A DNA stretch of 64,000 nucleotides from TPA_inf: Saccharomyces. Its lineage: Eukaryota. The notes beneath the pieces are model-generated. The model did not search any database, had not been told where the DNA came from, and was given only the letters and a program-made list of their open reading frames with translations. How positions within the stretch are numbered: position 1 is the stretch's first letter; every line of letters begins with the position of its first letter. Location: assembly GCA_000146045.2 (NCBI GenBank), contig BK006942.2:160001-224000 (forward strand), in the 5' to 3' direction. Made by a program: the position numbers and the translations under genes. Shown here in pieces: positions 44,654-50,738 of this stretch.

Positions 44654-45219
44654 TGCTATAGTATGAAGAAAAAAAGGAGTGTCTGCTGCTAATCTACACA
44701 GTTTATGACAACTAATAAAAGCGTTGTGTGCGTAATTGTCTTAGCCTCTTATACAGATGTCCTGTTGATGACAATGCCTTTAAAAAAAAAAAAAAAACGT
44801 TAACAATAGGTCACTCCTCCAGTTTTTGTCGTTTGGCGAATTCGGGTCATCGAATTCTTCCCTTGCCAATAAAGTTGGTGGAAAATACCCAAAACATCGC
44901 CTACATATCAAATCCGCAGATTTCAGGCACGCAATTTAGAGCCTACCATCTGTTCATAGTTAGGTTAGGCCATAGGTGGTCATCGTCGCCTCTACTTTCT
45001 TAGCATAATCAGGTTTTTTTCTTGATTTTTTTATCATAAATTGTAACTCCGATTTAAGTAGAAGTGAAAAAAAAAATACCCTGTTAATTGTCACAGCATC
45101 ACTTCTTCCTGTTACTTTCAAAGCTGTAAAGTGTTAGCATCTTTGTGCAAGAAGTAATAAGAATTTAATTGTTAACAGGGTTTGTAGCACTGGTATACGT
45201 TTTTCCATATCATGGAACA

Positions 45220-45559
45220 TGTTGTATCTCAAAATGAGATATGTCAGTATGACAATACGTCACCCTGAACGTTCATAAAACACATATGAAACAACCTTAT
45301 AACAAAACGAACAACATGAGACAAAACCCGACCTTCCCTAGCTGAACTACCCAAAGTATAAATGCCTGAACAATTAGTTTAGATCCGAGATTCCGCGCTT
45401 CCACCACTTAGTATGATTCATATTTTATATAATATATAAGATAAGTAACATTCCGTGAATTAATCTGATAAACTGTTTTGACAACTGGTTACTTCCCTAA
45501 GACTGTTTATATTAGGATTGTCAAGACACTCCGGTATTACTCGAGCCCGTAATACAACA
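45220..45559 (+). repeat. Ty3 5' sigma LTR (340 bp)
   Basis: The sigma sequence TGTTGTATCTCAAAATGAGATATGTCAGTATGACAATACG ... CCGTAATACAACA. Confidence 0.97.
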
Positions 45560-45561
45560 CC

Positions 45562-45569
45562 TGGTAGCG
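45562..45569 (+). promoter_or_regulatory. Ty3 primer-binding site (complementary to the 3' end of initiator tRNA-Met)
   Basis: TGGTAGCG lies 2 nt downstream of the 5' LTR. Confidence 0.7.
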
Positions 45570-45634
45570 TTAAAGGTTACTAATTGTTCAAACGAACCAT
45601 CGAAAAGCCGAACCTAGCTACACCACACCCCAGT

Positions 45635-46507
45635 ATGAGCTTTATGGATCAAATCCCAGGAGGAGGAAATTATCCAAAACTCCCAGTAGAATGCCTTCCT
45701 AACTTCCCGATCCAACCATCTTTGACCTTCAGAGGTAGAAATGACTCGCATAAACTGAAAAACTTTATCTCCGAAATAATGCTAAACATGTCTATGATAT
45801 CTTGGCCGAATGATGCCAGTCGTATTGTGTACTGCAGAAGACATTTATTAAACCCCGCTGCTCAGTGGGCTAATGATTTTGTACAAGAACAAGGTATACT
45901 TGAAATAACATTCGACACATTCATACAAGGATTATATCAACATTTCTATAAGCCACCAGATATCAATAAAATCTTTAATGCAATCACGCAACTTTCCGAA
46001 GCTAAACTTGGTATTGAGCGTCTCAACCAACGATTCAGAAAGATTTGGGACAGAATGCCACCAGACTTCATGACCGAAAAAGCTGCCATAATGACATATA
46101 CTAGGCTATTGACAAAGGAAACCTATAATATTGTCAGAATGCACAAACCAGAGACATTAAAAGACGCCATGGAAGAGGCTTACCAGACAACCGCACTAAC
46201 TGAAAGATTCTTCCCAGGATTCGAACTTGATGCTGATGGAGACACTATCATCGGTGCCACAACCCACTTACAAGAAGAATACGACTCTGACTATGATTCA
46301 GAAGATAATCTGACCCAGAATAGATACGTCCACACCGTAAGGACAAGAAGATCTTACAATAAACCAATGTCAAATCATCGAAACAGGAGAAATAACAACG
46401 CATCCAGAGAAGAATGTATAAAAAATCGGCTATGCTTCTATTGTAAGAAAGAGGGACATCGCCTGAACGAATGTAGAGCACGTAAGGCGAGTTCTAACCG
46501 ATCTTGA
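45635..46507 (+). CDS. GAG3: Ty3 Gag3 (capsid, spacer, nucleocapsid with a CCHC knuckle), 290 aa
   Basis: The ORF frame opens at a TTG (45584). The ATG at 45635 (MSFMDQIPGGGNYPKL) gives 290 aa. CFYCKKEGHRLNEC is a zinc knuckle. The stop codon is at 46505-46507. Confidence 0.93.
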   Translation: MSFMDQIPGGGNYPKLPVECLPNFPIQPSLTFRGRNDSHKLKNFISEIMLNMSMISWPNDASRIVYCRRHLLNPAAQWANDFVQEQGILEITFDTFIQGLYQHFYKPPDINKIFNAITQLSEAKLGIERLNQRFRKIWDRMPPDFMTEKAAIMTYTRLLTKETYNIVRMHKPETLKDAMEEAYQTTALTERFFPGFELDADGDTIIGATTHLQEEYDSDYDSEDNLTQNRYVHTVRTRRSYNKPMSNHRNRRNNNASREECIKNRLCFYCKKEGHRLNECRARKASSNRS

Positions 46508-49500: not shown

Positions 49501-50132
49501 ACCACCCCCAAACAGATGGACAATCCGAACGAACGATACAGACATTAAACAGGTTACTAAGAGCCTATGTTTCAACCAATATTCAGAATTGGCATGTATA
49601 TTTACCACAAATCGAATTTGTTTACAACTCTACACCTACTAGAACACTTGGAAAATCACCATTTGAAATTGATTTAGGATATTTACCGAATACCCCTGCT
49701 ATTAAGTCAGATGACGAAGTCAACGCAAGAAGTTTTACTGCCGTAGAACTTGCCAAACACCTCAAAGCCCTTACCATCCAAACGAAGGAACAGCTAGAAC
49801 ACGCTCAAATCGAAATGGAAACTAATAACAATCAAAGACGTAAACCCTTATTGTTAAACATAGGAGATCACGTATTAGTGCATAGAGATGCATACTTCAA
49901 GAAAGGTGCTTATATGAAAGTACAACAAATATACGTCGGACCATTTCGAGTTGTTAAGAAAATAAACGATAACGCCTACGAACTAGATTTAAACTCTCAC
50001 AAGAAAAAGCACAGAGTTATTAATGTACAATTCCTGAAAAGTTTGTATACCGTCCAGACGCGTACCCAAAGAATAAACCAATCAGCTCCACTGAGAGAAT
50101 TAAGAGAGCACACGAAGTTACTGCACTCATAG
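45635..50132 (+). CDS. POL3: Ty3 Gag3-Pol3 polyprotein produced by a +1 frameshift (45635-46489 joined to 46491-50132; about 1498 aa). Pol3 comprises protease, reverse transcriptase, RNase H and integrase.
   Basis: The POL3 frame is open from the frameshift site to 50132. Motifs present: protease LFDSGSPTSFI, reverse transcriptase YLDDILIFS, integrase HHCC (H..H...C..C) and DDE. The order PR-RT-RH-IN is gypsy-type. Confidence 0.92.
46487..46493 (+). promoter_or_regulatory. Ty3 programmed +1 ribosomal frameshift heptamer GCG-AGU-U
   Basis: GCGAGTT lies 12 nt upstream of the GAG3 stop. Skipping A46490 reads GTT into the POL3 frame. Confidence 0.9.
46980..47213 (+). repeat. In-frame 78-bp tandem repeat (2 full copies and one diverged) within POL3, between protease and reverse transcriptase
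   Basis: Units at 46980-47057, 47058-47135 and a third from 47136 (diverged). They encode SAGNRGNPRN(I/T)KLS(F/L)APTILEATDPK, repeated. Confidence 0.9.
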
Positions 50133-50293
50133 GAATAGATACTACACACAAAACTTACTTATGTCACATGCAAGACGTAGACCCAACACTTTCAGTAGAA
50201 TACTCAGAAGCTGAATTTTGCCAAATTCCCGAAAGAACACGAAGATCAATATTAGCCAACTTTAGACAACTCTACGAAACACAAGACAACCCT

Positions 50294-50307
50294 GAGAGAG
50301 AGGAAGA
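50294..50307 (+). promoter_or_regulatory. Ty3 polypurine tract
   Basis: GAGAGAGAGGAAGA abuts the 3' LTR. Confidence 0.7.
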
Positions 50308-50647
50308 TGTTGTATCTCAAAATGAGATATGTCAGTATGACAATACGTCACCCTGAACGTTCATAAAACACATATGAAACAACCTTATAACAAAACGAAC
50401 AACATGAGACAAAACCCGACCTTCCCTAGCTGAACTACCCAAAGTATAAATGCCTGAACAATTAGTTTAGATCCGAGATTCCGCGCTTCCACCACTTAGT
50501 ATGATTCATATTTTATATAATATATAAGATAAGTAACATTCCGTGAATTAATCTGATAAACTGTTTTGACAACTGGTTACTTCCCTAAGACTGTTTATAT
50601 TAGGATTGTCAAGACACTCCGGTATTACTCGAGCCCGTAATACAACA
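50308..50647 (+). repeat. Ty3 3' sigma LTR (340 bp), identical by eye to the 5' LTR
   Basis: Base-for-base match to 45220-45559 on manual comparison. Confidence 0.97.
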
Positions 50648-50664
50648 GAACATATGAAATATCT

Positions 50665-50738
50665 GGTCTCTTGGCCCAGTTGGTTAAGGCACCGTGCTAA
50701 TAACGCGGGGATCAGCGGTTCGATCCCGCTAGAGACCA
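50665..50738 (+). tRNA. tI(AAU): tRNA-Ile, anticodon AAU, 74 nt (the Ty3 integration target)
   Basis: GGTCTCTTGGCCCAGTTGGTTAAGGCACCGTGCTAATAACGCGGGGATCAGCGGTTCGATCCCGCTAGAGACCA. A T7 terminator lies at 50741-50747. Confidence 0.95.

Follow-up and report, generated by a model that had tools for sequence, protein, structure and literature searches.

Ty3 elements of Saccharomyces cerevisiae

Two full-length Ty3 LTR retrotransposons are present in the S. cerevisiae S288C lineage: YGRWTy3-1 (Ty3-G), the active copy on chromosome VII, whose sequence is that of PDB 7Q5B (L011 among our loci), and YILWTy3-1 (Ty3-I; YIL082W and YIL082W-A), named YILTy3-1 in PMC4589538, on chromosome IX. Several properties of these elements are described. 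[quoted passage not shown] Thirdly, the integrase chromodomain, IN residues 446–511, contacts Brf1 and target DNA (PMC8632968). PMC8632968 (citing Hansen & Sandmeyer 1990) and PMC4589538 give YILWTy3-1 as inactive through an integrase frameshift, which according to these citing papers has been known since 1990, before the genome project; in PMC8632968 the frameshift disrupts the chromodomain, and restoration of the frame (again citing Hansen & Sandmeyer 1990) reactivates the element. Solo sigma elements upstream of tRNA genes have the same LTR, position-specific targeting and 5-bp TSD as YILWTy3-1, but differ in that YILWTy3-1 keeps its internal domain and has undergone no LTR-LTR recombination.

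The element in the window (the whole stretch of 64,000 nucleotides analysed) is almost certainly YILWTy3-1 of S288C chromosome IX, a recent Ty3 insertion that is integrase-frameshifted and non-autonomous. By exact-sequence look-up its Gag3 (290 aa) is identical to UniProt Q99219, the S288C Ty3-I Gag, its +1-frameshift Gag3-Pol3 fusion (1498 aa) is identical to Q7LHG5 of S288C Ty3-I, and the flanking ORFs are exact matches to S288C CAB2, AIR1 and THS1, with the element lying between CAB2 and AIR1. Because these look-ups and the PDB sequence matches agree, we regard the identity as settled: Gag3, Gag3-Pol3, flanking genes and tI(AAU) target are all the same as those of YILWTy3-1, the integrase frameshift agrees with the published one, and no difference was found between the window and that locus. 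All six structural features used to define the Ty3 class (Metaviridae, the Ty3/gypsy LTR retrotransposon of S. cerevisiae) are present. The element is thus an annotated and experimentally studied part of the reference genome rather than a new one; as a discovery it matters little, and the main lesson is methodological.

Ends, target site and tRNA gene

The features that define the ends of the element, all on the forward strand, are as follows.

45215–45219, +: left copy of the TSD, GAACA, 5 bp (LTR/flank comparison; single GAACA in the empty sites of other strains)
45220–45559, +: 5′ sigma LTR, 340 bp, with inverted termini TGTTGTAT...ATACAACA (identity to the 3′ LTR)
45562–45569, +: PBS TGGTAGCG, the 5′ segment of the bipartite PBS, 2 nt past the LTR (motif position)
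50294–50307, +: polypurine tract (PPT) GAGAGAGAGGAAGA, abutting the 3′ LTR (motif position)
50308–50647, +: 3′ sigma LTR, 340 bp (identity to the 5′ LTR)
50648–50652, +: right copy of the TSD, GAACA (LTR/flank comparison)
50665–50738, +: target gene tRNA-Ile(AAU), co-oriented with the element (Rfam RF00005, 58 bits; ARAGORN)

The initial annotation described an apparently young, full-length Ty3 lying where the family classically integrates, just in front of a Pol III gene, with LTRs identical base-for-base, a perfect GAACA duplication, and PBS and PPT in place, and each of these points is borne out. The two LTRs are direct repeats bounded by TG...CA, and pairwise alignment shows identity at 340/340 positions. 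Within the 5′ LTR are the motifs TATAAAT at 45357 and TGAAACA at 45287, which we take to be the promoter and a pheromone-response element, respectively; the PBS is presumably complementary to the 3′ end of tRNAiMet, CGCUACCA. The boundaries of the tRNA gene differ slightly between Rfam (50665–50738) and ARAGORN (50664–50739), and with the former the distance from the end of the 3′ LTR to the mature tRNA 5′ end is exactly 17 bp (50648–50664), within the 20 bp that characterize Ty3 targeting. With the TSD placed at −6 to −2, as PMC8632968 describes, the start site of tI(AAU) would be at about 50654 and the leader 11 nt long.

Taken with the literature, this anatomy suggests that Ty3 cDNA was integrated by an intasome tethered to TFIIIB at the tI(AAU) promoter, the two strands being joined 5 bp apart immediately before the Pol III start site. 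Such a stagger would have produced the GAACA duplication and would account for the 17 bp between the LTR and the mature tRNA 5′ end.

Coding region and comparison with Ty3-G

Between the LTRs lie two overlapping coding regions and, near the right end, the lesion discussed below.

45635–46507, +: GAG3 (YIL082W), 290 aa, capsid and CCHC nucleocapsid (exact match to Q99219)
46487–46493, +: programmed +1 frameshift site GCG AGU U (heptamer GCGAGTT), base 46490 skipped (fusion match)
46491–50132, +: POL3 part of Gag3-Pol3 (YIL082W-A), with protease, reverse transcriptase, RNase H and integrase (H2C2, DDE core, SH3) (Pfam)
46977–47210, +: a 78-bp repeat (26 aa) in three tandem copies, in the protease-RT interval (Ty3-G has two)
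50037–50040, +: inactivating lesion, a run of A4 compared to A5 in Ty3-G and other strains (alignment, single gap)
50041–50356, +: stranded remnant coding out of frame for the chromodomain and tail at the integrase C-terminus (match to Ty3-G)

GAG3 has no internal stop and matches Pfam Ty3_capsid (E=7.8e-79), with a weak zf-CCHC match. Joining 45635–46489 to 46491–50132 gives the 1498-aa protein of Q7LHG5 exactly, such that the two overlapping genes are joined by a +1 shift at GCG AGU U, as expected of Ty3. The 1213-aa POL3 product contains Peptidase_A2B (1–177), RVT_1 (380–538), RT_RNaseH (599–729), Integrase_H2C2 (832–891), rve (914–1006) and SH3 (1125–1184) domains, which is the gypsy-type order of protease, reverse transcriptase, RNase H and integrase.

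YILWTy3-1 and the other full-length copy, Ty3-G, share family and organization, and the 5′ LTR of YILWTy3-1 is identical to both Ty3-G LTRs by DNA alignment, such that all four LTRs are the same; the 5′ UTR, PBS, PPT and frameshift site are also identical, and the Gag-Pol proteins are about 99.5% identical (PDB 7q5b_A). Ty3-G has a different chromosomal site with a GAAAG duplication and is 5351 bp long, compared to 5428 bp for YILWTy3-1. The alignment contains one 78-bp insertion (the block at 47020–47097, missing in Ty3-G), 39 substitutions (30 synonymous, 9 nonsynonymous), and a single 1-nt gap.

The integrase frameshift

The 1-nt gap falls at 50037–50040, where one A is missing and FLKKFVY becomes FLKSLYT. 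Because of this missing base POL3 meets a premature stop at 50132, after 30 out-of-frame residues, which leaves 175 bp between it and the 3′ LTR. The stranded remnant ends with a stop codon at 50354–50356, inside the 3′ LTR, and with the deleted A restored it amounts to 105 codons that are 100% identical to residues K1443–P1547 of Ty3-G Gag-Pol and free of any further lesion. The repaired ORF is 1573 aa long; the Gag-Pol of Ty3-G, which has the A5 run, is a full 1547 aa with its chromodomain. The frameshift coincides with the end of the Pfam SH3_Tf2-1 domain and removes the chromodomain. With integrase taken to begin at about Gag-Pol residue 1012, a position obtained from the Pfam SH3 coordinates and the SH3 range in PMC8632968, the frameshift would lie at about IN residue 432. 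The element therefore lacks what autonomy demands, a full integrase with chromodomain encoded by a POL3 that runs into the 3′ LTR, and we regard YILWTy3-1 as non-autonomous because the lost domain contacts Brf1 and target DNA in the intasome. Together, the 30:9 ratio of synonymous to nonsynonymous substitutions and the otherwise undamaged remnant suggest that the YILWTy3-1 lineage was functional until recently.

It is very improbable that this is nonetheless an intact, autonomous and transposition-competent Ty3 copy, as the initial annotation had proposed. The identical LTRs, perfect TSD, PBS and PPT are what such a copy would have, the reading frame is stop-free from 45635 to 50129 after the +1 shift, and Pfam finds all of the catalytic domains; the claims of uninterrupted frames and of protease, reverse transcriptase, RNase H and integrase motifs hold to this extent. 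However, the deletion ends POL3 before the LTR with the chromodomain remnant out of frame, whereas all of the other sampled Ty3 POL3 ORFs (4/4 from other strains) read through the lesion site to a stop inside the LTR. A frameshift thus lies within 45635–50132, the range that the initial annotation had itself set for refutation, and the right-hand limit of that range is a premature stop; the integrase is truncated after SH3, and the element is inactive unless the frame is restored according to PMC8632968, with inactivity also given in PMC4589538. Neither intactness nor transposition competence can be upheld. The lesion was missed because POL3 was assumed to end naturally at 50132. A retrotransposon with identical LTRs, a perfect TSD and a stop-free ORF is therefore not necessarily intact, and the end point of POL3 needs comparison with a functional copy to judge Ty3 intactness, as a single missing base removes the domain that docks the intasome on TFIIIB.

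That the missing A is a homopolymer error of sequencing or assembly, the real element being intact, is scarcely credible. Such errors are most frequent in homopolymer runs and the remnant frame is otherwise perfect, but an independent assembly (L013) with the same chromosome IX flanks also contains the truncated ORF of 1183 aa, the protein curated in UniProt as Q7LHG5 has 1498 aa, and the frameshift was reported in 1990, as the citing papers state.

The extra 78-bp repeat was also considered as the inactivating change and rejected, since an intact three-repeat POL3 (P0006, 1258 aa) is present in another strain, and the reported reactivation by frame restoration alone (PMC8632968) also argues against it. 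Rescue by slippage, programmed or otherwise, at the A4 run is unlikely. To regain the frame, ribosomes would have to shift by −1 or the mRNA would have to gain one A; CUG AAA AGU does not fit the X XXY YYZ pattern of slippery heptamers, and a Ty3-style +1 shift enters a frame with early stops. Such rescue would also be at odds with the published inactivity.

Age of the insertion and origin of the lesion

An uninterrupted, empty site with a single GAACA is present in eight natural strain assemblies. Given LTR identity and the absence of the element from this site in these strains, the insertion is, as judged from the assemblies, recent and polymorphic among strains, in agreement with its initial description as young. 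By itself, LTR identity with textbook mutation rates sets a loose limit on the age, 1.3–2.6e7 generations or fewer (approximate values). A search for the truncated allele at other loci gave none beyond the chromosome IX site, the sole other match being L013 with the same flanks.

A 1-nt deletion, A5 to A4, puts POL3 into the wrong frame where the SH3 domain ends, and the resulting integrase lacks the chromodomain and C-terminal tail and has 30 aberrant residues instead. The deletion may have arisen by a reverse-transcription error in the founding cycle, or afterwards in the chromosome. That it was already in the cDNA at integration, either through RT slippage in the A run or through packaging of a defective parent RNA with intact Ty3 proteins, is a serious possibility to which we give slightly less than even weight. 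Per cycle, reverse transcription makes far more errors than replication of the chromosome does, and the 680 bp of LTR have so far acquired no chromosomal mutation. A newly lesioned cDNA would integrate normally because the VLP proteins come from the parental mRNA, and the internal region is dispensable in cis given proteins in trans (PMC4974528). On the other hand, the A4 allele was seen at one locus only, giving no sign of a spreading defective lineage, and the internal region is seven times the length of both LTRs combined, so that one in-situ hit there and none in the LTRs is unremarkable.

Residual capacity and other sigma elements

YILWTy3-1 retains every cis-acting part (LTR promoter and terminator, PBS, PPT and +1 site) in a form identical to that of active Ty3-G. 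Its coding capacity for Gag3, protease and RT/RNase H is also preserved, as is that for integrase from the N-terminal domain through the catalytic and SH3 domains. The copy should be transcribed, translated and packaged, and in principle the element would be mobilisable by Ty3-G proteins. We speculate that YILWTy3-1 RNA, given these identical cis-acting ends, is co-packaged and mobilised in trans, or that the truncated integrase acts as a natural dominant-negative or copy-number brake, although we think it rather unlikely that the defective copy departs from inertness in either way. If it does, chromodomain-less integrase in VLPs or intasomes would lower or mis-target Ty3 integration; PMC4589538 speculates that YILWTy3-1 contributes to VLP heterogeneity. 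We regard YILWTy3-1 as an ordinary, non-autonomous Ty3 copy that may be mobilised in trans.

Ty3 or sigma fragments are also found beside assembly gaps in two strains (L002 and L004), to the left of window position ∼36.7 kb, where they could be scaffolding artefacts. In another strain (L007) a solo sigma occupies the same GAACA site in the opposite orientation and is 98.8% identical, and because of this orientation and level of identity we interpret it as an independent insertion.

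Identity and structure of the element

[quoted passage not shown] Its 290-aa Gag3 is an exact match to UniProt Q99219 ('Transposon Ty3-I Gag polyprotein', S. cerevisiae S288C), and the Gag-Pol fusion formed by skipping base 46490 (1498 aa) exactly matches Q7LHG5 ('Transposon Ty3-I Gag-Pol polyprotein'); together with the exact matches of CAB2, AIR1 and THS1, these place the window in S. cerevisiae chromosome IX. The features are as follows.

43556-44653, minus strand: CAB2, exact S288C match
45220-45559: 5' LTR (sigma), 340 bp
45562: primer-binding site (PBS) TGGTAGCG, 2 nt past the 5' LTR
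45635-46507: GAG3, open frame of 290 codons
46467 to the stop at 50130-50132: POL3 open frame
46487: Ty3 frameshift heptamer GCGAGTT, within the GAG3/POL3 overlap
50294-50307: polypurine tract GAGAGAGAGGAAGA, adjoining the 3' LTR
50308-50647: 3' LTR (sigma), 340 bp
50665-50738 (Rfam) or 50664-50739 (ARAGORN): tRNA-Ile, anticodon AAT
50923-52005, minus strand: AIR1, exact S288C match
52499-54703, plus strand: THS1, exact S288C match

The two LTRs (ends 5' TGTTGTAT and 3' ATACAACA) are identical at every position; past the LTR bounds the identity continues for a single base to the left and does not continue to the right. The 5428-bp element is flanked on both sides by GAACA (45215-45219 and 50648-50652), and with the Rfam coordinates 17 bp separate the LTR end from the mature tRNA 5' end. 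The initial annotation was therefore correct as to the identical LTRs, the target-site duplication (TSD), the spacing to the tRNA gene, and the presence of a PBS and polypurine tract, as well as the protease, reverse transcriptase, RNase H and integrase motifs, which are recognised by Pfam. Gag3 contains Ty3_capsid, and the domain order in Pol3 is Peptidase_A2B, RVT_1, RT_RNaseH, Integrase_H2C2, rve and SH3_Tf2-1. Ty3 is primed by tRNAiMet on a bipartite PBS, and its +1 frameshifting has an efficiency of about 5% (PMC4974528). Every Ty3-defining feature tested is present; what is lacking is the complete integrase that defines an autonomous Ty3.

Ty3 is integrated by an intasome that docks on TFIIIB and whose strand transfers, at -6/-2, create the 5-bp TSD (PMC8632968); if the GAACA is taken as -6 to -2, transcription by Pol III would start near 50654, with a pre-tRNA leader of 11 nt. 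The window contains two tRNA-Ile(AAU) genes in opposite orientation with 91 nt in common at 95% identity (23431-23521 and 50657-50747), the likeness extending a few bases past the 74-nt genes on both sides.

A one-nucleotide lesion in the integrase

YILWTy3-1 is not intact. Both reading frames had been described as uninterrupted, and this holds for GAG3 but not for POL3, whose stop is premature, falling 175 bp short of the 3' LTR. Translation of the other frames reveals a second long open frame downstream of 49950 (...FVYRPDAYPKNKPISS...QNEICQYDNTSP*), with its stop at 50354-50356 inside the LTR; this stranded frame plus the junction lysine comprises 105 residues that match, with 100% identity, residues 1443-1547 in the Gag-Pol of Ty3-G, the active chromosome VII copy (PDB 7Q5B chain). 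In the DNA alignment of the two elements the run at 50037-50040 has exactly one A fewer than in Ty3-G, such that the codons read CTG AAA AGT TTG (L K S L) vs CTG AAA AAG TTT (L K K F), and insertion of one A yields a Gag-Pol of 1573 aa, i.e. 1547 plus a 26-aa repeat. In other strains, the four POL3 ORFs sampled (1232, 1232, 1258 and 1439 aa) all continue past the lesion site to the LTR stop. The earlier view of an intact and possibly transposition-competent element is thus wrong, and the frameshift falls within 45635-50132, the range that it had named for a translation test.

An assembly error at the A run is ruled out, as an independent assembly of the same insertion with the same flanks (L013) has the same 1183-aa ORF. 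This 5385-bp contig (GCA_026954535.1) has both LTRs shortened by ~100 bp, with 236 bp separating the start motif from the end motif, probably through repeat collapse in short-read assembly.

In the 1213-aa Pol3 the SH3_Tf2-1 match extends up to residue 1184, and the sequence is aberrant from 1185. In Ty3 integrase (IN) the SH3 domain (CTD) spans IN residues 369-433 and the chromodomain 446-511, the latter binding Brf1 and downstream target DNA and acting as a ruler for integration (PMC8632968). Because the SH3 match ends at the lesion, this domain map predicts a truncated integrase that retains the NED, HHCC, DDE and SH3 modules but has 30 missense residues in place of the chromodomain and tail. 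Two later papers describe YILWTy3-1 as inactive owing to this frameshift (PMC8632968; PMC4589538), and restoring the frame is reported to reactivate it (PMC8632968, citing Hansen & Sandmeyer 1990).

Comparison with Ty3-G

Whole-element DNA alignment was with the chromosome VII copy (L011), located between the CLB1/CLB6 cyclin genes, which is 5351 bp long with identical 340-bp LTRs and the TSD GAAAG. YILWTy3-1 differs by one additional 78-bp repeat (47020-47097) and by 39 substitutions, which span 45782 to 50176. The extra repeat is a harmless polymorphism, since a POL3 ORF from another strain (P0006, 1258 aa) has three repeats and reads through to the LTR stop. The substitutions include 30 synonymous and 9 nonsynonymous changes, and the stranded integrase remnant has no second lesion; together these indicate that the lineage was selected for function until very recently.

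The four LTRs and the 5' UTR are identical between the two copies (window 45220-45634 and 50308-50647 vs L011:6586-11936), and the 39 differing sites, mostly synonymous, amount to 0.85% of the coding region. For the 415 nt of LTR and 5' UTR the expectation is about 3.5 differences against none observed, a weakly significant departure (P about 0.03) that could stem from constraint acting on cis elements or from exchange between LTRs in reverse transcription. Gag A256 and Pol Q389 and V1312 (YILWTy3-1 numbering) are P256, H389 and A1312 in all other Ty3 sequences sampled, and look private to YILWTy3-1 or its immediate parent.

The substitutions being confined to 45782-50176, all cis-acting regions (element nt 1-428 and the last ~370 nt) are apparently identical to those of Ty3-G, and Ty3 can do without its internal region if the proteins are provided in trans (PMC4974528); Ty3-G should therefore be able to mobilise YILWTy3-1. 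The A could have been lost either in the reverse transcription that made YILWTy3-1 or later in the chromosome.

Age and the empty site in other strains

Ten chromosome IX loci (L001-L010) were retrieved via the exact AIR1 protein. The target site is empty, with a single GAACA (...catggaacatatgaaatatct|GGTCTC...), in eight natural strain assemblies (L002-L006 and L008-L010), which is the empty-site comparison that had been proposed. The 836-bp empty site aligns over its full length in seven of these (98.4-99.8%), and the remaining one, L004, has no insertion in this intergenic region apart from a solo delta at another position. With the identical LTRs, these empty sites bear out the proposal that YILWTy3-1 is young, as far as the data go; taken by itself, the LTR identity limits the age only loosely, to roughly 1.3-2.6e7 generations at most under textbook mutation rates. 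In L001, the synthetic chromosome synIX, the element and tRNA gene had been deleted by design. The tenth locus, L007 (GCA_000977985.2), contains an oppositely oriented solo sigma at 11359-11699 (reverse-complement coordinates 9385-9725), corresponding to window 45219/50648; it is 98.8% identical, has the same GAACA duplication on both sides, and represents a separate Ty3 insertion at this very nucleotide that was then reduced to a solo LTR.

Other elements and repeats nearby

The L004 (GCA_000977505.2) solo delta, ~335 bp (TGTTGGAATA...TATCTCA) with an ACTTT duplication, lies between CAB2 and tI(AAU) at reverse-complement coordinates 9167-9500, some 230 bp to the left of the Ty3 target. An L004 delta is 89% identical to the window's own solo delta (Ty1/Ty2 LTR; 37159-37488, minus strand), which is about 100 bp upstream of tRNA-Glu(CUC) (37592-37663). 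Two YJM-series assemblies have Ty3 pieces adjoining the left side of the point equivalent to window ~36.7 kb: L002 has internal sequence (99.3%, reverse-complement coordinates 1-1110) beside a 100-N gap, and L004 has sigma (100% over 324 bp, reverse-complement coordinates 475-798). Either a further genuine Ty3 site or an artefact of scaffolding could account for them. Poly(T)/poly(A) tracts of about 25-30 nt at 3235-3279 and 27817-27861, flagged as a weak inverted repeat, are probably just homopolymers of the kind usual between yeast genes.
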